A stretch of DNA of 63,835 nt, the filler included, from Folioceros fuciformis (Eukaryota): assembly GCA_049999805.1 (NCBI GenBank). It is 4 parts of 4 records of this genome, joined end to end, with 100 filler letters (N's around TTAATTAATTAA, not from the genome) between each part and the next. Parts side by side here need not be neighbours in the genome. Positions count along the whole stretch, not along the records: positions 46,358 to 60,800 come from JBNGIO010006183.1; 3 more parts are not named here. One strand, given 5' to 3'. Below, one piece after another: positions 9,339-60,900 of this stretch. The notes beneath the pieces are model-generated. The model was not told the origin of the DNA. It searched no databases and saw only the letters and a program-made list of their open reading frames with translations. Within the stretch, counting starts at the first letter, position 1; each line of letters begins with the position of its first letter. The position numbers and the translations under genes are program-made.

Positions 9339-9527
9339 GTGACATTGTTGTCAAGGTTTAGAGGGAATTGACTTGGATAGGGGCTTGTACAAGGGAATGT
9401 GGCAGGGCTGATGGATGCCCCGCATAGGAGCTGAAGATTTCAACTCCAGCTATGAAAGAAGGGGAGCTGATGGAAGGGGGCTGTGACCCAAGGGCTGATG
9501 GACCTGGTGGTGATGATCCGGGGGTCA

Positions 9528-21582: not shown

Positions 21583-21682
21583 NNNNNNNNNNNNNNNNNN
21601 NNNNNNNNNNNNNNNNNNNNNNNNNNTTAATTAATTAANNNNNNNNNNNNNNNNNNNNNNNNNNNNNNNNNNNNNNNNNNNN
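21583..21682. other. Assembly gap with TTAATTAATTAA linker (also 46258-46357 and 60801-60900; plain N gaps at 42891-42990 and 60311-60410)
   Basis: 100-bp N runs with a six-frame-stop linker at the centre. Confidence 0.97.
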
Positions 21683-38448: not shown

Positions 38449-41400
38449 TGTGGAGACCACATGGTAGATAGGCCTCTTAGAAAATGGATGGTATTTGTTT
38501 TTTTTGGAGTTTTGATAGAATTCCTTGGAGAGGTAATTAGGAAACTATGTTAGATAAGGCTAGATTAAATAGGATGATCAAGAGATAGTGGTGGTGCAGT
38601 TGAGAAAGACAAGAATCGTCTAACTAACCCGTGGCCGTGGAAAATGTGAAGTAGGGGGTAGGGTGTGCCCGTGGAGAGGGATGCCGGTGTGTGTGGAACC
38701 CTAAGTCGGGCGTGTGAGGGTGAGCTGGAGCCTCGGGAGCGTGCGGAAGGCGGTTGGGCATAGGCATGGAGGTAGGGTGCCTAGGCCTGTCCTGGCCTTC
38801 GACCAGGTGGCCGGGGCTAAGGATCTGGCTGGTAGGCAGGCCAGCCTGCTACGGGGATGGATCTGACGGGCGGACGGATCGGTGGCTGCAAGCCCAGGCA
38901 AGATTCAACAGGCCGGGTGACCGTAGGGCGGCTCCAAGCAAGCTGGGTTGTGGTGGCAAGGCAGCCGAATCTAGCCAGCCAGCAGACGGGCTGGCTGGTC
39001 GAGGATGGGCTAGACAAGGGCTGGCTGGGCAGGAAGCAATCAGCCCGAGACGGCGGCTGGTCGGCCGGGCCAGCAGCAGCCGAGTGGAAGATCTGCTGGC
39101 TGGCAGACAAACCCAGCAGGCTGGCTGGGGGATCCTGAAGCCAGGCAGCGGCCTAGGTAGTTGTTTTAGCCAGGCAGTGGCCGGGTTGCTGGCAGCTGGG
39201 GCTGGATCCGGAGGTTACCAGGTCGGCCAGGCAGCAGGCAAGCAAGTAGGAATGGACCTAGCCCGGCCAGGTGGAGAGCGGGCAGCCTAGCTGGGTGGCC
39301 GGGCTGGTCGAAGTTGGAGGCAGGGGGCGGTGGTGGATCCACGGGCGTAGCAGGCCGGCGCCGAATCCCGACTGGGATCCCTACTGGATTCGTCGAACCG
39401 GTTGGCTGTAGGCGCAAGGGGCCGGCAAGTAGGCAGATGAGGGCGGTGGCTGGCTGGTGAGGGGCTACTCAAGGGCGCAGCTAGCAACCCAGCCCGGGTT
39501 GGCAATCGGGTGGCTGCCTGGGCGGAACCAGAAGGTAGAAGACTCTGGGCAGGCGGTCTAGTGGACAGTGGTTGCCCAGGCCGTTAGCAGAAGCTGTTGG
39601 AGGGCCTAGCAGCAGCCCAGCCCGGGTCGGCACCCATGGCGGGCTGGCCTGGATTGTATTGTAGGCTGGCCTGGATTGGGTTTGGCAGGGTGGCTGGGCC
39701 AAGGCCAAGCAGCAGCAGGGTGGGGGCGAATCCTGGCCAGTCGGCGGGGTGGGCTGATTGGGACCGAAGTAGCAGGCTGCAGGGGACGAATCCAGCTGGG
39801 ATGGCAGGCAGCGAGAGTCAGCAGGTAGCCAGCAGGTGGGTGCCTAGCCGGACCGCCATGCAGCCAAGCTGCCGCCTGACGGTTGGGGGGGAATCGGCCT
39901 GGCAGGGGCTGGCCCGCAGAGGCCGCCTGTTGAGCAGCAGCCAGGTGACCCAGCAGCCGGCGGGCTGGCTGGTCACGGCTGGGAGCAGGGCGGTGGTGTC
40001 GAATCGGCAGGCCAAGCCAGGCAGGTGGTTTGGGTGAATCAGTCAGGCGGGGGGGGATTGGATCCAGCCAGCCAGGAGGCCGTATCGACAGGCGGCCTGG
40101 CAAACAGGGTGGATCTAAGCGAGGCCACAGCAGGCCAGGTAGGCTGGTGGCTGGCTGCCTAACCGGCTTAGCAGGCAGCTGCCAGATGGGGCACCAACGC
40201 GGGCAGGCCAGAGGCGGCACCGAATCCTGGCCGGCGTGGATGGGGCTGGTTGCAGGACCGGTGTGTAAGGATCAGAGCCCAGCTCAGGGACGACTGGGCA
40301 CGGATGTGCAGGGTTCCTAGCCTGCTGCCGAAGCTGAGCAGGGGGTAGAGCTGAGTAGCGAGGGCGGGAGTGATCGGGCAGGGACGGAGTGGGAGCAATT
40401 GCGAAGACCCATCTCCCTGCAGGATCCCAAGCGGCTGGCAGGCTAGTCGGCCCTGAGCAAAGCAGGAGGCCGGGAGAGCCTTGCAGGCGGATCCAGGCCA
40501 GGCGGGCCTCAAGCTGATTCAGGCTGCAGGTAGGTGCTGCCGTCGGGTGGGCTGCGGATGATGCTAGAGCGAACCCAGGTCGGGATGCTAGTAGGTAGGC
40601 CGCCTGGCTTGCAAGAGCTAGCCTGGGTGGACTTGAGCCGGGCAGCAGAAGCTGAGCCGGCCAGCCAGCCGATCGGGCTGCAAACGGCAGGTCGACAATC
40701 CTGCATGGCCGGGGCCGGCGGGGTGCATGACAGGCGGATCTGGCTGGGCAGGCCAAGCTTGGAGCCAAGATAGGCCGGATTTTGGCCGACAAGGTGCTCC
40801 GAGGCTGCGGCAATGCCAGATCCAGGAGTCAGGCCATGATGGCTAGTGACTGGCTAGGTGGGTTCTGATAAGAAGGCGCCTGGCGATCCATCACCAGGTG
40901 ACGGTGGGCTGGCTAGCAGGTGAGGCTCTAGTCAGGTGGCTGCTGGCCGGCTGCAGGGGCAGATCGGAACGCAGCAGGTTGGTGGCCGATTCGGGTCGCC
41001 AGGGAGCTACAGGCGGCTTGCAGGCTGGCGGAAGCTGGTCCAGCCCGGCGCAGGCCAAGCAAGTGGGCGGCCTGTGCGAATCAGTAAGGAGGGGGCTGCG
41101 GCGGCGGCGCAGGTAGGTGGCTCAGCAGCGCAGGCAGCACCCAGCCTAACAGATCGGGCTGCAGGGCAAGGTTGGATCCAGCAGGCCGACGGGCTAGGTG
41201 GATCCGAGCAGGCAGCCTGGCGAGTGGTATGGCGGGCTACATAGGCCGCCAAGCTTGTGGGTTGCCTACAAGGTGACGAACAGCCAAGCCTCGCAGGTAG
41301 CATGGCAGGTGGCCGGCTAGCAAGGGTTGGCTGGCCAGGGAGGCCCCAGTCAGAGGCAGGCCGCTCCGGCGGGTTGAGGCAGGCTGGAGCAGATCAAGCA

Positions 41401-43566
41401 GGGTGTGCCTGTTGGTTGGCTGATTCGGGTCGCCAGGGAGCTGCAGGCGGTCTAGCATCGTGGGTAGTGGTAGGCAGCTGGCCGGCAACCCAGCAGAGCA
41501 AGCAAATAGCTAGAGGCTGACGGATCTAGGCCAGGCAGGCCTCGGCATGATCCAGCTGCAGGCAGGCTGGCGGTTGAGATCTGGCAGGGGGGCCCCGTCT
41601 GTTGGCTGGAGGTGGCGGCTGAGGGGTCTAGCTAGCAGCCCAGCCCGCCCCAGCTACGAGCAGACAGTAGGTGATCCTGTGGGCTGGCTGCCTGGCCAGA
41701 TCTGGGAGGCCAGGCCGGCCGGCAGGCGGCCTGGAGGATGGCCGGGCCAGAGCGGCAAGCTGTTGGGCTAGCAGGGCCAGTCGGCTGGTCGAAGTTGGGC
41801 CAGACAGGGGCTGCAGCGGTTGCAGGTGGCTGGATCTGGGCTGCCCAGGAGCTCATAAGGAGCAGGCAGCCCAGCCCGGCCAAGCAGCCAGGCGAGGCTG
41901 CCAGATCCAGAAGGAGGGTAGGATCGATCAGCAAGCCTGGCGTGGTGAGCTAGGCTTGGCTAGATCCGAGCCGGCAGGACACTCCGGGCATGGCAGGCCC
42001 GAGCCGAATTTGGAAGCCGGGCGGTGGCCTGGCTGTAGGATCCCGAGCAAGGGTTGGCAGTGCAGGATGGTAGGATCCAGGCAAGCTGGCCTAGATCGTG
42101 GTGGACAGGCGGCTTGGGCTTATCGGCTAGGAGGGTGTCGTGCGGCCAGCTAGCCGGATCCGGAAGGAGGGAGGCCACCTTGCGGCCGCTGGTAGGCGGC
42201 CGGAAGCAGGTGGTAGGAGGCCGGCTTGTGGGCGCATGGCAAGTTGGCTGCGGCTGCTTGAGCTGGGGCCGTTTGGGGTGACCGACTGGCCAGGGGAATG
42301 GAAGGTGGACGGGGAGGCCGAGGTGGAAAAATGTGTGTTTCTCTAATAGGCAGGAGGCGAGGAGGATGGTGGTGGGTGATGTGAAGTGTGCAAGGGCTGC
42401 ATTACGTTGGGCCATGCTCAATGTGGTCTGCAGGGGAGACGTTATCACCTTGTTGCCTGTGCACCCCTCTATCCCTGCCCGCCCAGCAGACTGGAGGGAA
42501 GGGTATGAAGACGGTGGGTCTCTGAAGGATTGCAGATGATCTTAGGGGAAGGAGAGGATTGGAGAGGGGAAGAGGGTGTCGAGAGGCACTCGTGAGTTTT
42601 GGAAGTTTGGAGAGGTTTGATTAATTTTGATAAGAGCAACCAGGGCCATAAGTCGAGGTCAGGTTAGGTTAGAGTTGGGTTAGGTCAGAGTTAGGTTTAG
42701 GGTTTTGACGAGTGGAGGGTTCTGTCTGAGGCGTGCTGACCTGGTTAGGCAGTGACAGGGGTTCTTGGCACAGGAGTATAAGAGGCCAGGCCTGTCATTG
42801 AGAGGGGGGATGTTTTTGGTGAGAGCTCCCTTGACCTTGTGTGCAGGCTGCTGGGTTAGAGTTTTAACCCAGTGTGCAGATGTGCCTCGGNNNNNNNNNN
42901 NNNNNNNNNNNNNNNNNNNNNNNNNNNNNNNNNNNNNNNNNNNNNNNNNNNNNNNNNNNNNNNNNNNNNNNNNNNNNNNNNNNNNNNNNNTGGGCCGAGG
43001 GGGCCATCCAGCCTAGGTCTGCACATCCTTGCCTCAAGGGCTGCAAGTGAGGGGCTGCTGTATTTGAAATCCAGGAGTGAGACGTGATGGTGAAGGATTG
43101 AAGTGTTGGAGTGCTGGAGTGGAGGTTTGAAGTGCTGGAGTAGTGAAGTGCTGGAGTAGAGAGCCGTTGTGTTGGGGTGAGGAGCTTAGGTGCTGAAGTT
43201 CTCAATCAGCTGCTGAGGTTGCTGGCACTTAGGGCTGAGAGTGGAGGTTGAGGCCAGGGCTGGAACCTCCTCTCAGCTGCTGAGGCGGCTAATACCCGGA
43301 GCTAGGAGTGGGAGCTGAAGATGATGCTGAGTCCTCGTTCAGCTGGGGTTGTAGTTGGTATTGAAGATAAGGTTCTGATCTTTTTGCTGTAGTGTGGTTA
43401 GGTCTAGGGGCCGGTTGATAGATAGGATCAGATTAGGGCAGAGCGGGGAAGGTTGTAGAAGACCTTGACACTGGTTCACTCCCTTGGGAGCGAATCCTAG
43501 TACTATGACGATAACAAGGGGGAAGTGTGGCCCTTGGTGGTTCTTGGGTGCAAGTTCCACTCCACA
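38449..43566 (+). mobile_element. Solo LTR of the same Gypsy family as 4521-9317
   Basis: TGTGGAGACC...CTCCACA termini; perfect 5-bp TSD CACAC (38444-38448 / 43567-43571); conserved 5' and 3' blocks; contains one N gap. Confidence 0.93.
42350..42470 (+). pseudogene. Captured fragment of a universal-stress-protein (adenine nucleotide alpha-hydrolase-like) gene inside the solo LTR
   Basis: ARRMVVGDVKCARAALRWAMLNVVCRGDVITLLPVHP matches the plant USP beta1-alpha1-beta2 pattern (VV..AR.AL.WAL.N....GD.I.LLHV). Confidence 0.7.
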
Positions 43567-44707
43567 CACACCACAGCCTGAGCTAGGGGAGGTATCTTTC
43601 TCTAAGTGTCCAAGGACCTTGGCTTCAGGAACAATTTTGGGTTCTGATACTAGGGGAGACCGAGGGGCCATGACGGTACATGCACCTTCCTCCAACATGC
43701 AAGAAGTGCATCAGCAGTTGGTCTAGCAGATTGGCCAACATCACTTTGTGTTCGGGAAGCAGGAACGACTCGGCGAGTTGCTCTTGAACTCACTCAAGGA
43801 TAGTGCGATGTCTGTTAGTGAGGGTCCTGGAGGTGTTGGCGCTGTTGGGACTGGCCGAGAGATGGTCGTCTCCGACTTCATCATGGTGGTGATGGGAGCA
43901 CGGTCCAAGACGGGTATCCTTGCCCGCAACGGGTATTTCCAAGGTCGTGGAGAGGTGCTAAGACTCTAGCCACACCACAGGCGGGAAAGGGATTGAGGAC
44001 TAGACAACATAACGAGGGGGAGGTCAGATTGGAGACACAAATAGCTTGGGATACAGTAATCGTAGCCCCCTACACAGTGGAGGCGAATCTCTCAAGACAA
44101 AGGACACGGTTGAATACGTAAGCATTCATGGAGACAGCGCAAGAGGAAGGGAATCCTCTTGCACTCAGGCATGACTCTAATGGCGGGCTGCTAGACGAGA
44201 CATATGACATGGAATCTTCATGTTAGACCGAGACCTATCCACTAGCAACAATCACCCACAGTCATGGAGAACCCACACAGGAGGAAAATCACTTAAGCCT
44301 CCTGCATGACCATAGGAGATGCACAACGAACCCTGTTGCAGCGGTGTGGAATTTATCAGCAGGCATGGCTAGTGAGATAGCACAAAAGAAAATGGCGTCG
44401 CTTGGAAGCATGCATCCTGAGGTTGGACAATCGGAAGCCCTTGACAATCCTACGACTATAGTTGGTTCACAGGGTGGCACGGGTGTTCCAGGAGGGCTGG
44501 ATTGGCACTTGTCAAGGAGTGCTTCTGAAGTCGTTGACGCCCGGGTAGCTGAAGGACAAGTGATTGAACACGTTGCCTCATGCTCCAAGCACAAGACCCT
44601 AGGTGACGAGTTTGCACTGCATGATCCATTTGTGTGCAATCAAGGGCCCTACAAGACTTTGGTGTTTGTTTATCAGCGGAAGGCTTGGACAAAAAGGCAA
44701 AATATGC

Positions 44708-44847: not shown

Positions 44848-46357
44848 AACCTATGATGGTTAAAAGCGAAGCTCAGGAGCCAAGGTCTGAAGGACGACTC
44901 ACACGAACTCCAGCTAGCACCGTGTTTCCTTGTGGAGGAGCTTCAGTTGCCGTCATTACTTGTCACGATAACCTCCTGTGCCATGGCGTTGATTGCGATC
45001 ACAGCCTGCAGCCTGGTTGTTCATCCAAGCTACAAAAGGGCGACTCGATGCTTAGCAGAAGTAGTACTTTGGCAGTCAGTAGGGGGCTTGGCGTTTAATC
45101 GCGGCAGTGCGTTACCACCATCACCACTCGCATCTTCAACATGGCCTACAGCAGCTTCAATTCTCTGGAGATGGGCAATAGCAGCATCGAGCGTCTGAGA
45201 CCTCCGCCACCCAAACAACTTCCAACTTTGTCAGCTCCCTCTGTGACTGGGAAGTGATGGTGGCCAACCAAAGCTGACATGGACCTGCTGTGGCATCAGA
45301 TCAAGGCGCTAGAGAAGTGCAACGAACTAGAAGACCTCCTCTCGTCTGCAAAGAAGAAAGTGAAGGAACTAGAGGCGCTACTGGGTATGACACCTGCAGA
45401 GGACAAACTATCACAACCTTTAACACCTGCAGAGTACAATGCGGTGATGCAGGAGCTCGAGGAACTTGGATACATCCTTCACTCATCAACAAGTGAGAGG
45501 TAAACTTGCCATCTTATAAAAGTTCTAACATGTGATGCTCTCACGGCTGGATTCTGAACTTACGTTTCATCCACTGAGGGCACCTCATCGTCGACCTACT
45601 TGTGAAAAGGAGACAATAAAGCAAGTCCTGTACTTTGTGCGGACAGCAGGACCAAGTAGGACTGCTGCGAACTGGGCAAGCTACCTCCATGTGGATAGAA
45701 CTAGGCAGGTCACGTACAAGTTATGGGCATGGAAAATGCCCTCATCCCAATGGGTTCTAGGTGTTTGTAGTGCTTCTCCTTGGACAGACCCTTAGTAAAG
45801 ATGTCAGCAGTGTTTTCATTGGTACTAACATATTGAACTCTCACCATACCCCTGTCAGCTACAGCACAAACATAAGGGTGATAAAGTCAATGTGTTTGGT
45901 CCTGGCATGGAACCTTGGGTTCTCGACAAGTGCTATTGATACATTTCGTGGAGATTGACCAAGGGATCAGACACGCGTGCGTAGGCTAACAAGAACGAAC
46001 TGCACTGGCTACATTGCAATGGGGGTGGACAAGGATACCCGATCCAAGTCCCATGAACAGTTACAACCGTCACTTAACTGTCATTTAGGGTATCTCATAA
46101 ACAACTAACCCTAGGTATATAACAATGACTAACTAAATGATGCTTATTTCTCAACACCCCCTTAGAAAGTTTTAGATCAAACAAGCAAATTTGTATTACA
46201 GCTGAATGTCTTTAAAAACCACTCTTGACAGTTGGAAGCGGTTAGGTTACCCATTCANNNNNNNNNNNNNNNNNNNNNNNNNNNNNNNNNNNNNNNNNNN
46301 NTTAATTAATTAANNNNNNNNNNNNNNNNNNNNNNNNNNNNNNNNNNNNNNNNNNNN

Positions 46358-46940
46358 TGCAGGGCATAGGCTAGGCCTGCACCTGCCACTCCCTTCCTGC
46401 AGCGTACCTCGGGCTAGGTGCTGTGCGCACCCCTCCCTCCCTCCTGCAGGGCATAGGCTAGGCCTGCACCTGCCACTCCCTTCCTGCAGCGTACCTCGGG
46501 CTAGGTGCTGTGCGCACCCCTCCCTCCCTCCTGCAGGGCATAGGCTAGGCCTGCACCTGCCACTCCCTTCCTGCAGCGCACCTCGGGCTAGGTGTTGTGC
46601 GCACCCCTCCCTCCCTCCTGTAGGGCATAGGCTAGGGCTGCACTTGCCACTCCCTTCCTGCAACCCATATGTTAGGCCTGCACCCGCCACGCCCTCCCTC
46701 CTCCATCCCTCAGGCTGGATGGTGCACTCGCCTCTCGCTCTCTACACCTTCCCATCCCTACTTTCTACAGCGCACAAGCTAGGCCTGCACCTGCCACTCC
46801 CTTCCTACAGCGCATAAACTAGGCCTGCACTCGCCACTCCTTCCCTCCTCCATCCCTCAGGTGGGTGTTGTCCCTCCCTGCACCTCCCCATCCCTCCCTC
46901 CATCCTGCACTGCATAGGCTAGGCCTGCACCCGCCAGCTC
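46358..46940 (+). repeat. 87-bp minisatellite (about 3.5 near-perfect units, then degenerate)
   Basis: TGCAGGGCATAGGCTAGGCCTGCACC... at 46358, 46445, 46532, 46619. Confidence 0.9.
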
Positions 46941-47314
46941 TAGTTTGGTATGCCATATGTGAACTCAAGATCATTTTGTTTTTGAAAAACGAAATCTTTT
47001 TTCCAATGTCTTGGGAAGAAAAAAAAAACTTCCCTGCGGTTAGGCACCGCCTCCGTGTCACCGATTTTGGCTCAAGAGCCGAAACTCGATTCGGCCCCAC
47101 TATTAGACTTGAAGATGAAAAGGGAAAAAGAGTTTTAGAGTTCCACGTGGGCGGAAGTCTGCCTCAAGTTACTCCCGCCTTGCTGCCTCAACATGAGCCT
47201 TGAAATGTCATGTTCCTCCCGTTCCAGCATAGTTCAGGACACCGGAAACAATTCTGTTGTTTGACGAGTTCTTAACTAAGCTACGTCCGAGGGGATCTGA
47301 CTGAGCGTGTCGCT

Positions 47315-48184
47315 ATGGCAGGCGGCGCCTGCGTCTTTGAAAGGATGGCCTGCAAGGTCAGCTTATGCTGTCAACGTCCCTTGGGAACAACTTCGGGTCC
47401 GAATGCGTCTTCCGCAGCGATGTCGTCGGGACGTGTGAGGTTACGGCGGCACAGCAGGATCAGGGCTGTGACTGCTCCGGAAGACTGCAACGAGGAAGAA
47501 TGTGCCCCAACTAAAGAAGTGAGTGCCCGCTGTATGGTGGGAACGAATGTGCTGCAGTTGTGGACAGGCGTTTAACTCTAGTTGCTAGCCATTCGCAGGT
47601 TGGAAAAATCAGTTTGGAGTGGGTCGCGGAAGAGAGGACCAAAGTGATAGGAACGTACCCTCCTCTGGCGAGAACAACCAGGGCCTACACCGGTTACGTG
47701 GAGAAAGATACTGCAGGGCAAACGAACGTGTACGCTGTTGAGGTGTGTCGGACTGTTCAACGACTTGTGAGTCCGATGTCTGGCAGTCGGAAATGGAATT
47801 GGTGGTCCCAGAACTCATTCGTTTGCTGGCTCTCGCTTCTCTGTGGTGCAGCCTGCAGTGTATGTTGTCGACAATGCTGTGAGCTCAGGAAGTGCAGGGT
47901 TTTCGTCGGAGGGCAGCGAGAATACCTTGGCTATCTCTTTCGGCTTAGGGCTGATTGCAGTTGCAGGTGCAGCTAGTGTGCTAATCAATGTAGGCAAGGG
48001 TGAACCTGTCGGAGGAATGGATTACTCAGGTCCACCCCTAAGTTACTACATCCAGAAGTTCAGCCCCTCAAGTGCAATTCAAGCTGATGCTCTTGTTCTG
48101 GAAGCTCCTCAAGTGGCTGTGCAGGCGGATGGTGTTAACGATCAAAATTTTGCCTATGCGGCTACTACGCCCGAGTTGACCTAG
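47315..48184 (+). CDS. MPH1: MAINTENANCE OF PSII UNDER HIGH LIGHT 1 (exons 47315-47518, 47599-47742, 47852-48184)
   Basis: EDCNEEECAP.KEVGK.S.EW.AEE.TKV.GT.PP; YTGYVEKDTAGQTN.Y.VEPAVYV; TM helix; YSGPPLSYYIQKF. In-frame GT-AG introns. Confidence 0.9.
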
Positions 48185-48996
48185 TATCTCCCTCCTCTTA
48201 GACATGATCCTTCTGGCGAGCGCACGCTGTATCTCCGAAATCGGTCCGAGGACATCTGCGAATTGGGAAAAGGTCCGGTGGGGGTGTTATATAGCGTGGT
48301 ATTGCAGTCTAGGGTCATCCTGGGTTAAACGAGGAGGAACGAGGAGGGAAGACATTTGCGTCATCTCGTCAGAGTCATTCCTCTTAAGTCAGTGGCTGGT
48401 CCCATCCAAGACAAAATGCTGAAACGGAGGTCCGAAAACTGGTTAAACCAAAACCCCACTGTAAACAAGGATTGTTAATTGCCACTTGTTTCTCACACAC
48501 TAATGTATCTGTTCAACATGGGAATTGTAAAATGCAATTTAACATTGACAGAACATTCAACACAGAATTCCACTCTTAAGAATTGATCATAATTAAAAAA
48601 AAGACACAACCACATTGCATATATAGTTGGACAACTGTTATCGTGTGATATTAACAATACTACACAACAACTTGCAGACAAAACCTTACAAAATTGTACA
48701 GAGAAAACATTAACGAAAGAAAACTCGCCACGTGTTGCACAGTACACGTAGTTGCACGGCCCATCTAACCGTACAATCACATTCTCTGCAGGCCCAGAAG
48801 CACGAACCATGTCCCTATCCTGGCCGCCATGGTCAATACCCATTCCCCCTTCTTTTGGACCACAATGCCGAGGACAAACCTTAACCAAGAAAGTTCCTCT
48901 TCACTACTTCAAACGCTCTATACATATGTCGTGCCTGAAAATGAATCTCACGTACCGAGTCCAAGCCGGCACCACCCCCTCGCTATGGTGAAAACC

Positions 48997-51900
48997 TTAG
49001 TTCTGGTCCTTGAGATCATGCTGCAACCAACGACAGAGTCAGCATCCACGACCGTCGCCTCAATCCGCATTTCTGTCCGACTATGCAGCTGGGATTACCT
49101 CTGAAACGAAATGAGCATGGAAGCCATAGGGAACCCTGCTCGGCAATGAGACGATTGCGACTGCCTGTGGACTCATCGTCTTTGCGTCAATCACTACAAC
49201 CTCAGATTTTCTGCATCACAATCACTGCAGTCAGTTCCGGACGTAATCGGGATGCACACCAAGTATTGAGAGATGAAGATGATGCTACGCATACTTTAGC
49301 TTCTCGTCGTGTACAAAAGAGATCAGGTATCCGTCATCTTCTTCCACTGCATCAGTCTTGGGCACAAAAACAGCTTCTGACCCATAGCGCTCGTCTCCAT
49401 ATCGGAACACCCCTTTGATATTGTTGCCTACTTCCAGACCCTTGCCCAGTTGTGGCTCAGCGAATAGGTCAACTTTCACAACCGCTATAGCCTTGACATT
49501 GTCGAAGACCAGTAAGTAGGCAAACTGCTGCTTCCTGTCGCAGATTCCTCGAATCAGAAACTTGGTGGGTATTGAGGTCGACTAATATGAAGACCGAAGT
49601 CCCAAGACAGAAATGGACCCGAAAGAAATCACGCAGCGATTCAAGACCTCACCTCCCCACGAAGTTCTCATTGATACGAGGAAAGTCCGCCGCAAAGTCT
49701 CCAATCCTTCTCTGTGAGGAGGCTCCGCTCTTCAAATTGAAACGGAACTCATACCTGCAAATTGGCCCAGCGCTTAACGTCCGTCAGGGTGCTCTAAATA
49801 TCTGTTGCAGTTCAAAGGGACAGATCCATGAAACCTAGGTTTTTAGCAGGGAAGTACAGTTCGTTGCCCATATCCTCCATTGTCTTTCCATCGGGAGCAG
49901 ACACGGCATTCATGTTCAGTTTCTTCAAGCGACATGAGTACAGAACAACTTCATCACCTTCTTCCCACGCATTCACTGTCATGGCCACGACAAACTATTG
50001 ATCATTCCTGTGTGCCGCCATTGCTGGCCAGAAAAGCTTGTGTATAGGGTTGAGAAAATCACCATTGTGGAATACGTAAAATGGTGGAAGCTCAAACCAC
50101 CGAATCTGACTTTCGTTCTTGGCATACCGTGGTAAGATCCCAAATCTGGACTTCTTAGATGCATCAAACTTCAAAACATGCCCTGTCTGCAACATTTCCT
50201 GGAGTAGAAGTGAAACATGAGAGATTATTTGGCCTGCCTACCCATTACCATATAGAGAGCTAACACAGGGGCAGAAACCAGTACCCTGGTCGGGAAGGCA
50301 AAGTACCTTGGGCCGGAAAACCACAGGCAAATCCATGAATATGGCAAAGTTCTCGGTTATAGCAAAATCGTGCATCATCACTGGTTCAGGAATAGTTATG
50401 GTAACTGGTTCTCCCAGCACGCCATCTTTGGAGATGACATGGTAAGTGACAAACGGAGCTTTTTCAAAGCTGTAGCCATACGTGAACAGCTCCCCTGTCC
50501 GTCAATCACCAATTCAAATGACTGTCAACTTCCTGCTATTCGTGAAATGCAGGCTGAAATTGCAACCAAAGGTTCAGCAATCAAACCTGTGTGGACATCA
50601 AGTTTTGGATGAGCAGTCAAGGGATGATTCAGCTTAGACCCGTAATCATGAAGTCCCAATGTTTGAAGATCTCCATCTTCGAGAACCCTCAGAGCATCTA
50701 GAACCAATCTCCACCAGTTCTATGTGTCAGCAACTGGACCATCACATTAAAGGGAAATGAAATCTTTCACAGATCTGCAGAAAACGAAAACAAACGTTCA
50801 CGTACAAGGTTTGTCCCCTTCTTGTAATGCAAAAACCTTGCCGCTGTGGAATGTGAGAGCAGTGTTACCTGCAATAACAAAGGAACAACACTACACCCAT
50901 CAATGCCCGTCCAATCAGTCCGATCTACCCAGGGAATCGGACTCTCACCTGTTCCATCCCCTTTCGAAGAGTCAAGAACACCAAGCTTCAGACGAAGCGT
51001 ATTCAACAGGAGAAAAAATAGCCCTACTGTTCCCGTCATATCTCCCAACTGTCAGAACCGAAGGAGACAGATGAATTCCTCAACCGCTCACAGTCTGTCA
51101 ACTACAAATACACACAGAATGCAATACCGTTATTCACAACAAACCTTGATGAACTTGGCAGCACCGTAGTACTCTTCTTGTTTGATCCGTGCAGTCCTCA
51201 CATACCTCGAAGCATAAGAAGCTTTTCCATTCTTGATCCGCACTGCATGAATCATTCTGCGCACTAGCCACTTGTCATCCGTTTTGAATTTCTGGAGCTC
51301 AGTGGAATGAGAAACCTTAACCAAGACTAAGCAAGCTTGTCCAGCCTTCTGAATGGGCTGAAATCGCCTTGCTGCCTCCATACCAAACAGGAACCCAATT
51401 CTGGAACGCGGCTTGGCAAATCATAATGACAATTTTTACACGCAGACGGACGAGTAAGAATCATACCCATCCCCGTCGAACCTGCATCACCAGAAAACGC
51501 GGCTTAGTGATCCACAAAGTCTGTCCCAGAGCATTTCGAAATAAAGTTCACCTGCAATACCTCCGCCCTAAAATATGTCGCAGGTTTATGTCACGACAAA
51601 AACACTGAAGTAGACCAGTGAAACATACCAGTGATAATTGCCGACAGGTTCAAACTTGGGATTAGGTCCAACTCGAAGAAATTCTCCATTCAGGCAGTCC
51701 TACAAGAAACCACGCAACCGCAATTTCAGTCCATACGCAGAGCATCGGAAGAAATAGCATGAATCCCAAGGCCCACTAGAACCGTGGATTGACGAAGGTT
51801 TAGCCGAAAGAAACAGGTGCACAATACCGGCAGAATTCCGACGATTGCGAGATCCGTCGTCAGCGGAAACTCCTCTACTGGTGCGTAATTTCCCGTCAGA

Positions 51901-52082
51901 TAGTAATTGGGCTTGACGACGTCAGACGCCCACACCAGGACCTTCTCCAGGACGTCCAAGAGGGGAGCAGCAATTCGGCCTACGACAGTCGGCTGAAACG
52001 TCTTTTCATCCTTCGCCCCTTCCTGTCCCGGGGCTGTATCAGCCACACCAGCGCCTTTGAGGAAAGCAGTGTAATCGGCCAT
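48997..52082 (-). CDS. CCD1: Carotenoid cleavage dioxygenase 1, about 14 exons
   Basis: [18 protein letters not shown]; micro-exon [67 protein letters not shown]. Four Fe-ligand His present; no transit peptide. Confidence 0.93.
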
Positions 52083-52946
52083 CTCGTGACCGACCTAATT
52101 CAGCTGCAGATACAAGACACCACTGAAGTGTGTCAGGAAGTGCAACTCCTTCGGCTGGCAGTCCCGCTGCAGAGAATGCAGAAGAGAGATGGCCAGTTCC
52201 GAACTGCACATTGACAACCTTCTCCCGCCGATCCTTGGCCATAATCTCGACGGGTTGCAGGCTTCCACTGGACGAAGTTCAAGCGCGTGGCGTATCTCGC
52301 TCACTTTTACCCACCTTGGCACCCAAAAAAAGCTCACAACAGTAATTTCCGGTTGGGGTACACTGTGCGAACTGAACAATAGTAATAATCACTTCCAGTA
52401 GGCGTGTCCCACTCACATTTGCCCAGTTTGCCGTCCCCACAAACGAATCACCCAGTGCCTTGACATGTCTTACTCTCCGAGATGTCCGTCCAGGGGAGAC
52501 AACTCGGGGAGAACAATAATCGCGATTCGCTTCCGCTTGGCGTGTACCACTCACCTTTCCCACAAACAACAAACAGCGTGCCTTGGCCTTTACAACATTC
52601 CGTCCTTGGATAACTCGGTGAGAAAAACAAACGTATCACTTCCCGTTCGCCACTACTCCTGTGTTCACATGTGTTCTGATTTCTTCTACACTCAGCACTG
52701 GAAAATAATTTTAGTGTTGGATTTGGAATTCATTATTCCTCAACATAATCATCTCCAAACCTTGATTTCTTCGAAGGTAAGGGCCTGTAAAGTGAAGAAC
52801 TTGACCCTCACATGTTTCATAGTCCGTTTCTCAAAGATGTATGTACAGCTCTATAAAAGAACGATGGACATTTGTACAGATTACCAGATCCGAGCAAGTA
52901 CAATTTCCAAAATGTTCTGAAACTAGGACGAGTCTGATGGCTGCTC

Positions 52947-54361
52947 TCACACGGACTTGGGCTTCAACTTCCTCTCCTGCCGCACTTTCTCCAAGTGGTA
53001 GAAGATACTTCCATCAAAAACCCCACGAACGGCTTCTTTCGGAACAAAACCGTCTGCGTCTTTCACCGCCCAGTACGTGAAGCCCCATTCGAGCTTGGCT
53101 GCAAGCCTGACACACGCAGGGAGATGGTGCAGTGATCAGGATTCATCGGAAAGAAGAGGGACGACTTTGATCATGAAACACTCACCATCCCAGTGCATCA
53201 AAGGTATCCTGATTTGCTGCTGTCATGTCTAGCAGCTCCCCGAAAGTGAGAGACGCCCGTCTGGTTTTCGCGAATTTCTCAAACAGTTCCTCAAATTTGG
53301 CAGGAACAAATCTTGACACAACGTTAAGTTCAGCCAGTCAAATGTCAGACAGAAAGAAAAGAAAGTATTAAACGACTCAAAAGACAGAACGACACCAAAA
53401 TATATGGCAGAGTCCCTCCGGCTCCATGATTCGCTGAGGTTCACCTGCCCTCTGGGTCGTAGATGTCAGAGTCACTGGCGTGCTTGCAACGATGTATGTT
53501 GATAATGTATATGGGGAAGAGCGGATGCGGAATCCAACTCTGCACACAAGCATCATATTAGAACCAGCGGTCGTGCTTCCTGAAGTCCTGAATCCCACCA
53601 GTAGGCCAAAACTTACATCTTGCGTCTTGAAGGCCATGAAGAAGTGGATTATACTGGCAGCCCAGAGTGAGACAAGAATGTTGAATCCGATGGCCCGAAA
53701 ACCTGCGAAAGCGTTGCAGAACAGTCAGGAAGACACGAAGGCTACACTGCCCCGAAGCTGACTCGTGGCTCCAAATCGTTCCAGATTTGGTACCTGAATA
53801 GGTCTCCCAGGGGTATATGACCCCATCGTGATTACGATCGAAGAATGCCACATGCTGCTGCATTACTGTCATACTGCGGTGAGGATAGCCCGGCGTTCCA
53901 TGCGGATGCTCCCTGTCGGCTGCCACCAGTGCTCGTGGCACATCTGTAGAACCAGACCCTCAATACAGGATCTCCAACAAGAAACGACGAGCAACACAGG
54001 GGGCAATGCATGCGAACTTACACGGCCTGTCCATGTTGTCCAAGTAGTAGGGATCAACCCGGCGTCGATAGGTGATGGGGGCGCGCTCGGTGTCCGTCCG
54101 GAGGTGTTCAGGGACGTTTAACAGATCCTCTCGAGGCGAGTGGAGATGGTCTGCTGCAGCCTCGGATGACTCCAAAGCCTTGGTCTGAACCTCGGCCGGT
54201 GCCGGCGCCAGCGACTTCGCCTGGCTCTGACTCTGGCTCTGGCTCTGGCCCTGAGGATGTGCCTGTCCGTGGCCTTTATTCCCGGACCGCGACTTGCTCG
54301 AAGAGTCGCGGCCCGATCTCGCAGTTTCCGCGGACTCGGGTGCCACAGCTGGAGTCGCCAT
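52947..54361 (-). CDS. Caleosin/peroxygenase, 6 exons, long N-terminus
   Basis: [21 protein letters not shown] (EF-hand); hydrophobic anchor with proline knot [36 protein letters not shown]. Confidence 0.92.
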
Positions 54362-55689
54362 GACCTCGCGCCTTGGGCTCAGGAAGGCTGTAAATGATCA
54401 AGCAAACAAGAGCCCCACAGTGTCATGCACAGGCCAGGGCAACAGATGCATCTCGACCAAGCATACTGCACAAGTCCGGCGTAGCGAAGCGACTGCTTGC
54501 GGGAGTCTGAGACCTGACACAAACTTGGTAGCGGACTTACATTGCCTCCAATTAGCTTCGAAGATGTCCTTGATGTCACCGACGCCCCTGACGACGTCTC
54601 TGGCGTTGGTGTCACTATGCATGTCAACGAGCGCATGAGCACAAGTCTGTGAATACGTCAATTGCTCATTGCTAGCAATTCCGTCCCACCATACATGACT
54701 GGCCCAACAACGCACCGAGGAGCAGAGCAGCAGACAGGAAAGAAGACCAAGCACAGCTTCAGAGCTGTAGCGCCGAGCTCACCGAATTGGAAGGCCGAGC
54801 TTGTGATGCACGCCCAGTCTTGATCAAGCACGGAAGTTGGGCGGTGGATCTCTCTCCCTCTTCTCACTGCGGGCAAAGCAAAGTTCCAGGAGGTTATTAT
54901 TTGCATGAGCCTGGGCCAGCGAAGCTATTGCCAATCACTGCCTCCCGGCAGCAACTGCATGTTGCAGTGTGGAGCTGGGATGTGTGCGAAAGGTAGTCTT
55001 GCAAGTGGCAGTTGTGGGCACAAGTCAGCAGCTGGCTGGCCGCGACTCACACGTGGAGGAGGGAGGCCGTGTTTGCAAGCCACGTCAACCAGATGGCGCC
55101 CGGTTTCCAATCTGAAACGCCACACGTTGGGTGCCCGCCATTCGCTGCCTACGAGGTTTCCATTGTCGGGTTCCGTGATGGCTATTCCCCTGGCCTCTGT
55201 TGGTGCTTTGCGGGAGTTTGTGCCTTCTTGATCCCAGCATCCGCGCATGTTTGGTTTGTGGTTGGCGTTCACGTTGTTGTTACGTCCATGATTCTTCTCG
55301 TCATCGTTGCTGATATCCTGGTCCTTTACCTCTTCTTCTACCTCATAGTCGAACTGGTGAGCTTGTCTTTAAGCATGTTGGATGCAATTTGCGTTTGAAA
55401 TGGGGGTCAGGCGTGGGCAGGGGCTTGCTGCGGTCATCTAGCCAAAATTTCTGCGTGGGTGTGCCAGCATCACCGCACTGTCGAGTGGGTGCGTTAGTGC
55501 AGCGCTTCTGAAATTGTTCTGAATTTCTGATCATTATAGGTCCTCGTTTCGCAGTGCCCACTTCCTGGATGTTTAGTGAAGTCCTGAATGAGATATCACT
55601 CAGGAGAATGAGTCATTCATAACGCTTGGCCCAGTTCTCCGTTCTGGGAAAACCATGAGGAGTAGTAGGTGCCTGATTCAGAGTAGTAG

Positions 55690-58265
55690 ATGTCGTGCAA
55701 TCCGGGGGACGTGTTGGTGAAGGGCAGAATGCCAGTGTTGTCAGCTCATTGTTTTGCAGATCACAAAGGGGGGTGTGGGGAAAACAACTCTATTGTTATC
55801 AGATTGCAGCTCAGTGCGCGGCGGCACATACCGATGTAAATATTTTGGTTGTGGACTTCACTGAGGTTAGTTCCCACTGTGTGTACGTTCTGGCTGAATG
55901 GGAAATAGAAGGTGCAGATGCATCAGTATCCTGTGACAAGGACACCTAGCCTTCTTGCTAGACACTTCAAGAACGGAGCCGCCCATAACACTGGGCAACG
56001 CACTGTGCACTGTATTTTCAGGCACGTGATCTTTCGGAGATCCTACTGGGTGGCATGGAAGAGGACAGAGGTCGGACGGCACTGGTGCAGCTAGTGATTT
56101 TGTCGAACGTGACGCACTTATGCCTTAGGAATTTGGCGGCCAGTGTTCGCCCCAGCGTTGAACACGAAGCCCAACCTAGCATACGAACTGGTGATGGCAG
56201 TGTAAGTACACCAGATACCTCCTTTTATGAGAAGGTGCTGGAGTATATGCCTAAACGAAGGAGGGCCAAGGTAAAGCTTATTTCAACTTCATGCCCCTTA
56301 TGTTTTGGAAGGGCTGAGACTGTGGTGTAGCTTGTTAAAAATGACTTGTGCTACTGTTCGTCAAAGCTGGTTGCAGGGTGCAGAGACCAGGACGTTGTTT
56401 TGAGAATCGAAGGCGACGTAGATGGCCCCCGACGTGAAGCCAGTGTAGATGTAGCTGAGTTTGCTATCCCTGTATATCCAGTGAATGACCAAATGCCTGC
56501 AAACTTGTATTTGTGTCCCAGAGGAGTGGAGTTTGAGCCACTGACCAGGTTTTCTAAATCTCAACAGCGAAGAATCGTTTCTGTTGTTCGACGGTAAGCG
56601 TGCAATTACATGTGTGCTTTAGGTTTTCCCTTCTTTATGTGGGCATGGTTGTCAGTGCTTTATGTTTCCCCCGACTGATGGGGACATCTTTATTAAGCAA
56701 GGATTACATACTTCCCTCGTGGTTGACCCTTGATGCAGCTCGTTCGAAGACGTAGAGGGTGATTGGAAGGTGTTCGTGGACACCGATGCCCGTCACCAGG
56801 ATCAGGGTGAAGTGTGTACCGAACTCGCTCTGGGCATCTCCCAGTTCTGCATCATGCCACTTCATGCTGACATAAGTGAATGGCTGAGAGCCAAGACGAC
56901 GTTGAGGGTGTTGAGGAATTTGCGAGATGACCGTGACAGCGTATGCACAGAAAGTACCAATGGTGGTTTTATGTCCTGCACTTGGGGACTGAGTTAAGTG
57001 TCAGGGATGATTGATTAAAGTTAAGAGTTGCACATGCAGGTGCAGATGATCATGTGGAACAAGCTGTCTGTTCAGAACAATCGTGAGAGTCCTTGCATTG
57101 GTACTAAAAAATGTTCTTTCACCCCTACGACGGCTGAGCAGGTAATATTTCTCTTCCTCCTGGTTGTCCAGCAACGGCACCGGTGCTTCATGAAACTTTT
57201 AGTATGGTAGTGGAACTGGCTATCATCGAAGGTGAGCTGTTGTGGTGGGATCTGCGATCTTAGGACGTACTACGAAGTCTGCACAGCCGTGTTCATGAAG
57301 AGGCTAAGCAGCATCCAGAAGATTTCTTCAACGTCAGGACAGAAGATGGAACAGCTCCGCCGTTCAAGCCTGCTGTGTGCATGAGAAACTTGAGCGTGGT
57401 TGGGCTCGCATCCAAGGATATGGGGGTGGATATACCAGTGTTACATGCAGGCATGTTTCATGGAGTGCACATGACATACAACCTGAGCGAGTATTCAGTC
57501 AACTCGTGCAGGTCCGTTACATGCTCCTCAGAATGTTATGGCCGAGCCACTGTTTGGCTTCGCACCTGCCTTTGAATTTTCAGCCTGGCTTCTTGTTTCA
57601 TGTGCATGCTGTGGCTTGCAGAGCCAGTTTACGCATCCTTGTGGAAGCGATTGACGCGGGGGACGAACTTTTGAAGCTTCCACGAGGTGGGTCTCTTAAT
57701 TCGGAGGCTCGGACGCCTTCAAATGAAAGGAGAAGTAAAGGGGCCGTGGATGGAATTGTGACTCCCGAGAGAATTCCCGATCCCGCAGCCGAGGTTTTGA
57801 ATCCTCACACGGCTCAGGGGCCTCCTCCAGATGAAGGTGCGCATCCCGAGGGAGATGAGGATGTGGATGAGCAGCAGCTAGAAGAGCTCGTCACGGATGC
57901 TAGTGGCGATCGCGAGCAGGGCGTGGATCCAGTTGCTGGTGCTGGAAGGGAACGGGGACAGGAGGAGCCTGCTCCACGTGAGCCAGCTGCGAAGATGCTA
58001 AATGGTAAGGCTCAGCAGCCGTTGGTACTATTTCCACTTGTCAGTTCCGAGAGATTCCAATTTCCGAGCCCGCAAACGTCTTGAATGCAGGTCGGGATGG
58101 GATGCTGATCTCGTATCCCTGTGGGATGTAGATGAGGAGACGGAGCTCCGGCCAGTGCAGCGTCGAGCCAGACGGCGTTCGAGAAAGGGACGAGTCTCGC
58201 AAGTTGTGCACAGAGTGCAGCGTTACTCCCTGAGGAATCTGTACTCGTTAAGAAGCAGAAGCTGA
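55690..58265 (+). pseudogene. Intron-containing ParA/Soj-family (SIMIBI) P-loop ATPase gene with two frameshifts in exon 1 (pseudogene or assembly error)
   Basis: FADHKGG(V/C)GKTTL-CYQIA...ILVVDFTE|ARDLSEILLGG...PANLYLCP...WKVFVDTD...IMPLHAD...IMWNK. Phase-consistent GT-AG exons 55690-55865, 56022-56270, 56391-56593, 56739-56940, 57040-57141, 57264-57511, 57622-58004 and probably 58132-58265. Confidence 0.75.
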
Positions 58266-60900
58266 GGGAAGACTTGCAGCCTGTGCTGACAGTCGACCTC
58301 GGTTGCGGAATTAGGGCTGTCGACGGGTGATGCGTGATGTCTTGGCGGCTGGCGGTGCATGTTCCAAGGCGGTTTAAGATTCTCCATCCTGCTTGCTTAG
58401 TGGTTGGTTTACCTTGTTGGAGTGGGCTAGATCTGCGACGGCCCTCAATGGAAGTCACAGTCTTACATCAACAACAACGACGTTGCGGCCTCGTAGTGTG
58501 TGCTCCGTGGTTGGCCATGCTCTCATCCTCGAGTGATGAACGCGTGATTAGCTACATATTTGCAACTGGTTTCATGACAGAAAGCGTAGCTTTATGGAGA
58601 CGTGACAGTCCATCATGTTTTCGTGGTCGGCAGCTCGTCGACGGCTGCGGGGTCCTCGCAGTGTGGCAGACGATTTACATGGAAGATAACATATCTACGC
58701 GCTTGTACAGCAGGCAAGGAAAGGGCGCCTTGGTTGAGGAGGAAGCCAGTTTGGAACACAGGTATGTATGCATGTCTGTATGTATGTAATCGGCTTCGGA
58801 CACGGTAACACTGATTGCCTTCGCTGTCTGAAGGCGTTCCACACATGGGATTGACAGAGGACCCTCATCTGCCGCACGTACAGCTGGCCGGCAGGGTCTG
58901 TCTCGACCCCGGGGGAATTCGAAGTGTAGCAGAAAATAGTCTGCAGCACTTGCAGCTCCCACTGTCCCGTGCTCTACAGGCTACAGGCGCGGGGGGAAGG
59001 GAATCTGCAGGAGGAATCTACTGGGGCTCACGTCGGGAGGAGAGAAGATGGATCCGGTTGGCTTGGAGCGTGCTCGTAGGAGGGAGCATCTCGGAGGCCT
59101 GCTTTCTTGGTTGACCCGACACATGGCCAAAGGCAGAGAGGTCGCAGGTAAAACTATCTAGGGCTCGGCCAGAGAGTGGCCTGCTCTGGTGAGATGCCCA
59201 TTGTGCAAAGAATCGATTCCTTGTGCCTCCTCCTCATGTCCATGTCCGGGTGCAGTCATTGGTTGCTGATCGTGCCTCCGTGTGGATGGTGCCATGTGGG
59301 TTCATGCCAACTGCGTGCTTCCTGCTGCCTCCTCCTGCCTCTGCCTCTGCCTCTGCCTCGGCCTGCTGCCTGCTGCTGCCCGTCAGCCCCAAGGCCGTCC
59401 CAAGAAACAGATAATGTCGGTAATAAACAGGCCATACTTGGAACAGGGATTTGGTGCTAAAGAATCGGATGCCTTGGAGTGAGATGCGTGTCAGCGGGCA
59501 CTCTCCTCACTCTGTCTCTCTTATAGTCTAGTCTTCTAGACTCCACAAATTCGGGTTTGCCCGCTTCTTCTACAAACTTCTTTGCAGGCCGGAGTCCCGG
59601 AGGTGGTTAGATGCATTGTGTAGACCACTTCCGTCATCGTACGCACGTGCTTTGTGCCGCCGGTGCATGCATCTCCCGCTCTGGGCTCGACGTGTCTTCT
59701 CCTCCCGTCGCCTTTCCCGTCCACTATGTACCAACGTGTTACGTTAATGTTGGATTAATTCTGGTTTATTTATGTAATTTTCTAACCCACTCCCTGTCCT
59801 TTCCTATGCACTACATGGATTGAATTCTGGAGCCATACTTAATTTATGAGACACACACAGAGACACATACTACTTAGGCGTTTTATAAATTAGAAATAAT
59901 CGTGAAACTGGTCGCATTCGTATGTTTTCATTCCTAAGCCTTAAAAGGTTCCTTCATGTAACCACTACTTCTTGAGATACAGGTATACACAGCTTAACTT
60001 AGCTTGATGAAAAAGAATCTTGGAAGGCGAATTTATTTCCACAATAACAGCCCGAAGGGTCTTTTTCATTTTTTTAATCTTATATTTAAGATTTTTTTTG
60101 GGGTTATTTAATGAAAAGAATGAAGAAGTAGGCGTGAACCTACGTAGGAAAGGACTGCAAACGAGAGCTCAGCATCTAACACTACGTAAGTAGGAGCCTT
60201 CCTACCCTTTTACGCCCTCTAATGCTGTTCACTTTCTCAAAGTAGTGTCAAAACACTTAACAAGTGGGGAGCATAAACTGCAGCCTAATTATTAATGTCT
60301 AGCCTAGGGGNNNNNNNNNNNNNNNNNNNNNNNNNNNNNNNNNNNNNNNNNNNNNNNNNNNNNNNNNNNNNNNNNNNNNNNNNNNNNNNNNNNNNNNNNN
60401 NNNNNNNNNNGGGGAACAGGGGGAACAGGGGGAACGGAAACGGGAAGGGCAGAGCAGGGCAAGGGCAGGAAGGGTGGAATAATGTTAGAGTCCCAATGAT
60501 TTGTGACTTATTCCCGGGCAGGTACCTCCCACGGAATAGGAATCTGTTTCGTTAAAATGAACTCATTTTCACTGGGGTAACATGGTGTCATGGAATCCAC
60601 AGGCGCAAGCGGCTCAACAGTTTCGCCACCCAGCATAGCCTCTGCAGCCTCACCCTGCGATATCTCGGGCGCCTTCTCCCATTGGCTATTGGCCCGCCCT
60701 CGCCTCTTCTTATTAAACTAAACCCCCCAGAGGCCGTACCAAATTATCCTGCCTGCACACAAATACCCCACCCCACCCCCCGCCCCCCGCCCCCCGCCCC
60801 NNNNNNNNNNNNNNNNNNNNNNNNNNNNNNNNNNNNNNNNNNNNTTAATTAATTAANNNNNNNNNNNNNNNNNNNNNNNNNNNNNNNNNNNNNNNNNNNN

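Follow-up and report, generated by a model that had tools for sequence, protein, structure and literature searches.

Examination of a 63,835-nucleotide stretch of DNA from Folioceros fuciformis (GenBank assembly GCA_049999805.1; hereafter the window, filler included) revealed, on its part from record JBNGIO010006183.1, a gene on the plus strand whose eight coding exons (55729-58265) splice into one ParA-like protein with a deviant Walker A motif, a Walker B motif, an acidic linker and a basic tail. The original prediction, made from the sequence alone, had read this locus as a bacterial-type ParA/Soj ATPase gene that was horizontally transferred and domesticated. A scan of 55.6-58.3 kb on this strand yielded short stop-to-stop open reading frames (ORFs) only, and the motifs named in the prediction are all present in their translations: HKGG and GVGKTTLL, ILVVDFTE followed by ARDLSEILLGG, PANLYLCP, VFVDTD, PLHAD and IMWNK.

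Nine sequencing runs were listed, and four of them (X1 to X4) were compared with positions 55000-58900. Runs X1 and X2, both DNA-like and drawn from a single sample, probably gave rise to the assembly. The label of run X3 (2017) is simply "RNA?"; this run belongs to a sample and a study other than those of X1 and X2 and held 65% of the sampled words. Its contigs show GT..AG joints, and on that ground it was treated as RNA-derived. Run X4 is a DNA run of another organism with a small share of the sampled words, and the remaining five runs held next to none. Over 55000-58900 the X3 contigs carry nine GT..AG joints, all on the plus strand, seven of which (55865/56022, 56270/56367, 56593/56739, 56940/57040, 57141/57264, 57511/57622 and 58004/58132) define the coding exons. 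These seven joints match the phase-consistent GT-AG introns by which the fragments had been predicted to join into one protein, and the introns of the gene measure 96-156 nt. The transcribed features are as follows.

55020..55356, plus strand: upstream transcribed exon, covered by X3 record 5 (55020-55356)
55555..55865, plus strand: exon 1, with the leader, the start ATG at 55729, strand beta1, the deviant Walker A and the Walker A' (ILVVDFTE); from X3 joints
56022..56270, plus strand: exon 2, with ARDLSEILLGG and then a helical insert; from X3 joints and alignment
56367..56593, plus strand: exon 3, with PANLYLCPRG; from X3 joints and alignment
56739..56940, plus strand: exon 4, with the Walker B (WKVFVDTD) and IMPLHAD; from X3 joints
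57040..57141, plus strand: exon 5, with IMWNK and FTPTTAEQ; from X3 joints
57264..57511, plus strand: exon 6, the C-terminal half of the ATPase fold (VVGLASKD ... FHGVHMTYNL); from X3 joints
57622..58004, plus strand: exon 7, with the final core helix and then the acidic low-complexity linker; from X3 joints and alignment
58132..58265, plus strand: coding part of exon 8, with the basic cluster, the C-terminal motif and the stop TGA at 58263-58265; from the joint 58004/58132

When joined at the X3 coordinates, exons 2 to 8 form a single open frame of 514 codons that ends with the TGA at 58263-58265. Since these joints place the tail in that frame, the gene model is confirmed together with the basic tail, which had been called only probable (RRARRRSRKGR..RYSLR). 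The tail, brought into frame by the joint 58004/58132, reads RRARRRSRKGR ... RYSLRNLYSLRSRS and includes the conserved motif RYSLRNLYSLR. Three other candidates for the gene model were rejected. The acceptors 56391 and 58091 were replaced by 56367 and 58132, which are the ones given by the X3 joints, and an N-terminus in frame 2 (QLIVLQITKGG) after an acceptor at 55759 was set aside, the N-termini of homologues pointing to the ATG at 55729. Exon 1 holds a further in-frame ATG at 55690. No second copy of the spliced model was found within the window by tblastn.

The coding part of exon 1 is read in three frames owing to two breaks: MPVLSAHCFADHKG in frame 1 from the ATG at 55729, GVGKTTLL in frame 2 and YQIAAQCAAAHTDVNILVVDFTE in frame 0. 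The first break lies in a run of six G at 55768-55773, one more than the five that the family reading needs, and shifts frame 1 (..HKG) to frame 2 (GVGKTTLL). The second is a surplus T at 55796, within 55793-55799 (CTA TTG T TAT), which shifts frame 2 to frame 0. The two single-base insertions are thus 23 bases apart, within and just after the Walker A motif, where two +1 shifts had been predicted, and the same succession of frames was recovered by tblastn with the family sequences. In the uncorrected frame a stop codon is reached at 55837-55839, which leaves products of 36 amino acids from the ATG at 55729 or 49 amino acids from that at 55690 (ORF 55690..55839); the first in-frame methionine 3' of the breaks is at 56055, in exon 2. 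The prediction had offered pseudogenisation or a consensus error as explanations. Comparison of X1, X2 and X3 with 55000-58900 gave no variant letters and no insertions or deletions, and X3 record 7, itself spliced (55863/56020), spans 55554-55863 with 0 differences to the window. Because two DNA runs and a spliced RNA contig all agree with the window in this way, a consensus error is rejected, the breaks are present in the mature mRNA, and pseudogenisation is the explanation that gains support.

The X3 contigs run on beyond the coding exons on both sides. On the 5' side the GT..AG joint 55356/55555 found in X3 is weak (depth 4.5, side 29) and an unspliced contig spans 55327-55583. The exon at 55020..55356 may be leader sequence of the ParA-like transcript; alternatively it is the penultimate exon of a small upstream ORF with an ATG at about 55093. 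This hydrophobic ORF (55093-55356 and 55555-55602, plus strand) would encode about 100 amino acids if spliced at the weak joint, ends about 125 nt 5' of the ParA-like ATG and matched no Pfam family; it may be a separate gene with a transcript overlapping the ParA-like gene, or else a long upstream ORF in the leader. On the 3' side a 2722-nt X3 contig with exons 3 to 8 extends about 930 bases beyond the stop, across a GT..AG joint at 58761/58834, and in this extended part (58266-58900 and beyond, plus strand) an ORF starts near 58680 (MEDNISTRLY...). The extension may have arisen by read-through into, or merging with, the next gene, or it may be a long 3' untranslated region that is spliced. 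Run X4 contributed a single 227-nt contig identical to 58141-58367, that is to the gene tail and the 3' region, the rest of the stretch being absent from it; a close relative, carry-over or a conserved piece could each account for this match.

A search for relatives was begun with exon 4 (67 amino acids; 56740-56940), by exhaustive HMMER/phmmer comparison with 1.84 billion representatives. Six matches were obtained at E <= 1e-3, of which P0002, P0003 and P0004 were retained; P0001, P0005 and P0006 are repeat proteins aligned in 6-9 short stretches and were discarded as spurious. P0002 (E 2.2e-11, 48% identity to exon 4) is a hypothetical protein of the lycophyte Diphasiastrum complanatum, and P0003 comes from Cryptomeria japonica. 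Searching on with P0002, and afterwards with an alignment of six members, extended the family to full-length members from one lycophyte, two ferns and three conifers: Diphasiastrum complanatum (KAJ7548606.1), Psilotum nudum (EP00249_P020841), Adiantum capillus-veneris (GOP47_0005350), a Pinus cluster (Pinus taeda PITA_00854), Cryptomeria japonica (SUGI_0062880) and Taxus chinensis (KI387_027105). All are annotated as hypothetical or 'AAA domain-containing' proteins.

Membership of the Folioceros protein in this family is clear. A model of the window protein, made by joining the exons with an X at both breaks, reached 402.9 bits with the profile of the six members, compared with 1.0 at most for 200 shuffles. 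It aligned end to end with the six full-length homologues at 38-41% identity over 431-457 aligned positions, and of the 121 columns in which the six do not vary it retains 92. At the N-terminus, MPVLSAHCFADHKGG aligns with MPV(I/L/V)S.HCFANH(K/R)GGVGKTT(L.YQ) of the homologues, and at the other end RYSLRNLYSLR corresponds to their YKTY(A/S)LRN(K/R)Y(S/P)LR. Exon 6 alone is 36-45% identical to P0007, P0010 and P0013 by tblastn. The family has a common architecture, in which there is no N-terminal targeting extension and the P-loop, with its signature lysine or arginine, is followed after Walker A' by a helical insert of about 90 residues, a Walker B of the form W-K-x-F-x-D-[TS]-D and a P-L-H-x-D strand; the core is followed by a K/R-rich basic cluster and, at the C-terminus, by the conserved motif Y-x-L-R-N-x-Y-x-L-R. 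Besides its two breaks in the P-loop region, the window copy differs from the homologues in having an acidic linker longer than that of any of them, and in lacking the last 25 or so residues (..SSTSTV) found in most.

Two isoforms bear on the age of the introns. The Diphasiastrum isoform P0002 lacks a segment, present in P0007, that corresponds to window exon 2, and the Cryptomeria protein P0003 lacks one, present in P0010, that corresponds to window exon 5. Because these gaps coincide with window exons, the intron positions are apparently common to the Folioceros gene and its homologues, as far as protein sequences allow them to be placed. In the parts of the literature covered, no account of this plant family was found and the homologues have no described function; lists of horizontally transferred genes in supplements may mention it. 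On this footing the family shared by clubmosses, ferns and conifers is so far undescribed.

The superfamily of the protein was approached through these homologues. Nine single exon pieces of the window gene matched no ATPase family in Pfam, the only signal being a sub-threshold one to ABC_trans_N with exon 6 (E 0.22), and exon 4 gave no match among PDB sequences by phmmer at E up to 10, nor did a word-index protein search for longer proteins. The deviant Walker A, xKGGxGK[ST]T with its signature lysine, is encoded at 55762-55789 (HKG/GVGKTT) and appears in the homologues as H(K/R)GGVGK(T/S)T. Seven of the eight family members matched Pfam AAA_31 (PF13614; best E 4.3e-10, with P0002 at 33.0 bits against a cut-off of 27) and seven matched CbiA (PF01656). 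A profile of the homologues placed Soj first among PDB sequences (E 0.0016), over the first 80 or so residues only.

An AlphaFold2 model of the Cryptomeria protein P0010, built from a 12-row alignment (pLDDT 72.3, pTM 0.75), places the helical insert behind Walker A' and leaves the basic C-terminal region disordered. The best Foldseek matches of this model in the PDB were Soj (8jmj, 2bek), P1 ParA (3ez2), McdA (6nop), delta (2oze) and the ParA of pNOB8, with E values of 5e-8 to 3e-7 for the top matches; MinD, FleN, MipZ and NifH came lower. Like the partition proteins ParA and Soj (8jmj, 2bek, 3ez2), the plant family has the same predicted fold (Foldseek probability 1.00, target-normalised TM 0.54-0.74), a deviant Walker A with a signature basic residue, and the aspartates of Walker A' and Walker B. 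It differs from them in its extra helical insert and C-terminal tail, and identity in the structural alignments is 12-16%. The NCBIfam model ParA_partition (NF041546) was matched by seven of the eight members in the P-loop region only and far below its cut-off of 180 (best 32.6 bits). No gene of ParB type was detected among 104 ORF pieces scanned at 46822-60717, where RPE65 and caleosin were the only matches.

The ATPases of this superfamily already described in plants, namely plastid MinD, NBP35/HCF101/INDL (Mrp/NUBPL) and GET3, share the P-loop with the family, whereas their models are not reached by it. NCBIfam models for MinD, BcsQ, PrgP and GET3 were sub-threshold and scored below ParA_partition, and PF10609 (Mrp/NBP35/HCF101/NUBPL) was seen in two of eight homologues at E 0.0044, under its cut-off. 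In contrast to these plant ATPases the family has no targeting extension: the P-loop begins at residue 12, and there is therefore no room for a transit peptide. The window protein model also has no CxxC motif. Here the prediction is supported, having placed the protein outside the known plant families with neither a transit peptide nor a cysteine Fe-S motif. A divergent paralogue of the plastid-division protein MinD could be argued from weak matches to minD_arch (three of eight members, best E 1e-4) and minD_bact (one of eight), and from 24.6 bits in BLASTP between the window protein and E. coli MinD. That alignment runs from the P-loop to the ...LG stretch with nothing significant outside the P-loop; P0002 reaches about 15 bits with the MinD models (TIGR01968 / TIGR01969) against cut-offs of 201-213; and Foldseek places Soj and ParA above MinD. 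With the missing transit peptide, these results make a MinD paralogue very improbable. By sequence and by the modelled fold, the family is a divergent ParA/Soj-like one and is neither MinD, Mrp/NBP35 nor GET3.

Relatives outside plants were sought in one genome per prokaryotic species with the shared P-loop pattern, which gave 600 pattern matches and 128 confirmed relatives, 80 of them retained. In the best of these 80 the whole ATPase could be aligned at 21-25% identity, as in Microcoleus and a Leptolyngbyaceae bacterium. The best non-plant match is the Microcoleus protein (L004, 25% identity over residues 6-401 of P0010); one from Ca. Halobeggiatoa covers the same span as the best relatives with 40% identity in its best segment, and a 'ParA family protein' on the Nostoc flagelliforme plasmid NZ_CP024786 is 20.5% identical over residues 6-383. 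This bacterial group, of about 340-355 amino acids with WNNKGGVGK(S/T) ... CPQAN, includes an Ideonella protein, P0017-P0020 and two IMG/VR contigs (L002 and L003), and it is spread over Cyanobacteriota, Pseudomonadota, Bacteroidota, Planctomycetota, Verrucomicrobiota and Bacillota as well as viral contigs and plasmids. It resembles the plant family in its order of motifs (P-loop, P.N..L, W.V.IDT(D/N), P.NAD and the asparagine of strand 7), in being longer than canonical Soj, and in an identity of 40-50% over the N-terminal 60 or so residues. It differs in the overall identity of about 20-25% and in having no basic tail, no YxLRN motif and no introns, and it likewise has no assigned function. 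The bacterial-type label of the prediction is accordingly borne out as to ParA-like character, through the homologues' Pfam matches and the P0010 fold, and much less so as to closeness to any bacterial protein.

No conserved neighbour of the bacterial relatives was found among 21 ORFs from 11 loci. Genes of defence or mobile type lie near some of them: a RiboL-PSP HEPN gene is directly downstream in Microcoleus (L027:4076-4675), a PIN-domain protein gene is present in a Chlorobiaceae metagenome-assembled genome (L006:4250-4672), and a D12 adenine methyltransferase gene adjoins the relative on an IMG/VR contig (L002:4241-5044).

In a tree of 34 rows the six proteins from vascular plants form the sister group of the window protein, and the seven-member clade has an SH-aLRT support of 98; a smaller, more careful tree supports this clade at 89/95. 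The prediction had explained the locus by the transfer of a bacterial parA gene into this plant lineage, followed by the gain of introns and of a tail resembling a nuclear localisation signal. It is true that the nearest non-plant relatives are bacterial proteins of about 350 amino acids, and that none of the 14 listed search matches, eight of which are in the family, comes from an angiosperm, a moss or a liverwort, an absence limited by the word prefilter and the length window of the search. However, the orthologues in a lycophyte, ferns and conifers share with the window gene the same start, tail motif and apparent exon borders, and in the tree the gene lies outside the bacteria. Nor is its composition foreign, with a G+C content at third codon positions (GC3) of 0.52 against 0.50 in the pieces of a neighbouring RPE65-like gene and 0.545 in those of a caleosin gene. 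Because best hits and tree placement both lie inside a vertically inherited plant family that is not MinD, an outcome that the prediction itself had named as evidence against it, a transfer specific to this lineage is contradicted on sequence grounds, and we consider it hardly credible.

Another explanation, compatible with the inheritance just described, is that the whole plant family descends from one ancient gene of a bacterium or of the plastid ancestor, acquired before the split from the vascular plants. The related family is widespread in bacteria and on viral contigs and plasmids, the named eukaryotic matches are from green plants only, and the first 60 or so residues share 40-50% identity with the bacterial proteins. 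In the 34-row tree, however, long branches lead to the plant clade, the pair P0015/P0016 and the bacterial clade from a three-way split of no resolved order, and the plants are neither nested in bacteria nor sister to cyanobacteria; the smaller tree joins the three differently. P0015 and P0016, two Logan proteins, form a branch of 383-385 amino acids in the wider family, in which a hydrophobic N-terminal segment and a stretch rich in Arg precede the P-loop. Eukaryotes are thinly sampled here. In ESM-Atlas the closest look-alike of P0010, and the second-closest of P0015, was a cluster similar in size to P0015 and P0016 with 92% Eukaryota, Chlorophyta being the commonest group, which hints that the eukaryotic history may be older. 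Bacterial ancestry of the family is plausible from these sequences, and we would give an ancient acquisition of this kind slightly less than an even chance.

Taken together, the gene model, the breaks, the family membership and the ParA-like fold of a homologue indicate that the locus is probably a copy of a nuclear, intron-bearing ParA/Soj-type ATPase family of non-flowering land plants, and most likely a recently inactivated pseudogene that is still expressed. An ATPase needs an uninterrupted frame through the P-loop, which the window copy does not have. We infer a recent inactivation with continued transcription because the P-loop is broken while every catalytic and motif codon, all 14 splice sites and the 514 codons 3' of the breaks are intact, and because in the 34-row tree the branch of the window protein (0.8) exceeds the path to its relatives (about 0.6) by no large margin. 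A less likely outcome is that the copy at best gives a P-loop-less product from the methionine at 56055.

It could be argued instead that the gene is functional and a full-length protein is made, either through an intact second allele or paralogue or through ribosomal +1 shifts at both sites. The intact motif and downstream codons and the spliced mRNA would fit this view, a glycyl-tRNA could in principle re-pair on the six-G run after a +1 slip, and the clustering of the breaks is odd for random decay. On the other hand, no variant was seen in three runs, the sequence TTG T TAT offers no +1 re-pairing, and the seven homologues that include the N-terminus all read through the P-loop without a break. 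Moreover, we know of no plant nuclear gene with two consecutive efficient +1 shifts. A functional gene at this locus is thus improbable.

Several points nevertheless weigh against the pseudogene interpretation or narrow it. Contigs drop rare variants, and a minority intact allele, heterozygosity or an intact paralogue may have escaped them. Random decay would seldom place two insertions 23 bases apart while sparing the rest of some 1.7 kb of coding sequence (roughly a few per cent by our estimate), so that one complex mutational event or some form of read-through may have to be considered. The terminal branch of the window protein is also the longest in the plant clade (0.8 versus 0.33-0.37), which could reflect an older relaxation of constraint or simply distance. 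The superfamily and fold assigned to the window protein derive from its homologues, since its single exons match no Pfam family and no PDB sequence. Finally, the mechanism proposed below is drawn by analogy only, no experiment or paper on the family having been found in the sources covered.

By analogy with ParA and Soj, an intact member of the family would bind ATP and close into a nucleotide-sandwich dimer, in which the signature lysine or arginine would reach across to the ATP of the partner. The residues expected for this use of ATP are conserved in the alignment: the signature K/R, the Walker A lysine, the aspartates of Walker A' and Walker B, and a conserved asparagine. The dimer would then attach through the basic tail to a polyanionic surface, most likely nuclear DNA or chromatin, and hydrolysis of ATP would release it, so that the protein might act as a positioning or switch ATPase.

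Two neighbouring genes of plant type were identified by domain scan in the same N-free stretch as the ParA-like gene.

49288-51420, minus strand: exons of an RPE65/carotenoid-cleavage gene
52950-53959, minus strand: exons of a caleosin gene

The prediction had taken its shared gap-free stretch as an argument against contamination. Both neighbours do lie with the gene on N-free sequence, at 46358-60310; the window as a whole is not free of gaps, the nearest N runs being 46258-46357 and 60311-60410. Other N runs are found at 21583-21682, 42891-42990 and 60801-60900, and each run consists either of 100 N or, as at 21583-21682, 46258-46357 and 60801-60900, of 44 N, 12 bases and 44 N.

Elsewhere in the window, positions 1-7676 and 13581-21256 form an exact (100%) direct duplication with a spacing of 13,580 bp, the second copy ending at the N run that starts at 21583. 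It was traced through the pairs 1-300 = 13581-13880 (D2) and 4521-4792 = 18101-18372 (D1) and through ORF lists that run parallel up to 7676 and 21256. The duplicated region is associated with a Ty1-copia RVT_2 domain (267-1052), a gypsy-type integrase (2570-3358, minus strand) and a copia gag/integrase (10974-13111), and the duplication may be a genuine tandem repeat or have arisen in assembly. Blocks of high G+C content (0.59-0.66) with a strong positive GC skew of 0.13-0.33 occupy 4001-10000, 18001-22000 and 38001-44000; common to them are a repeat of 272 nt (95% identity between 38449-38720 and 4521-4792) and one of 86% identity (8921-9220 versus 43170-43469). An intron-less ORF of 538 codons at 31668-33281 (minus strand) has a GH18 chitinase-like domain (E 3.1e-65) and a GC3 of 0.64, higher than in the other genes checked. 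Rfam gave 0 matches on the window.

To our knowledge, eukaryotic ATPases of ParA/MinD type are either organellar positioning proteins, as the plastid and mitochondrial MinD, or factors for Fe-S clusters and tail anchors, and nothing contrary to this picture was found for the present family in the literature covered. One might go further and see in the family an undescribed, nuclear-encoded and untargeted ParA-type ATPase of non-flowering plants that has a conserved basic tail resembling a nuclear localisation signal and closing with YxLRNxYxLR, acts on a surface as a positioning or switch ATPase in the nucleus or cytosol, descends from the bacterial orphan group, was lost in flowering plants and is being lost again here; as a whole this picture is speculative and rather unlikely to hold in every part. 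At the locus itself, a candidate for horizontal transfer and domestication has turned out to be a broken member of an old plant family, with breaks that are biological and not assembly errors. Annotation pipelines are likely to miss or mis-model this ParA-like gene. The family would exemplify a gene that non-flowering plants have retained and that flowering plants apparently lack, and its conserved, intron-bearing and untargeted ParA-like protein with a basic tail would offer a new place to seek ParA-style spatial organisation in eukaryotes.

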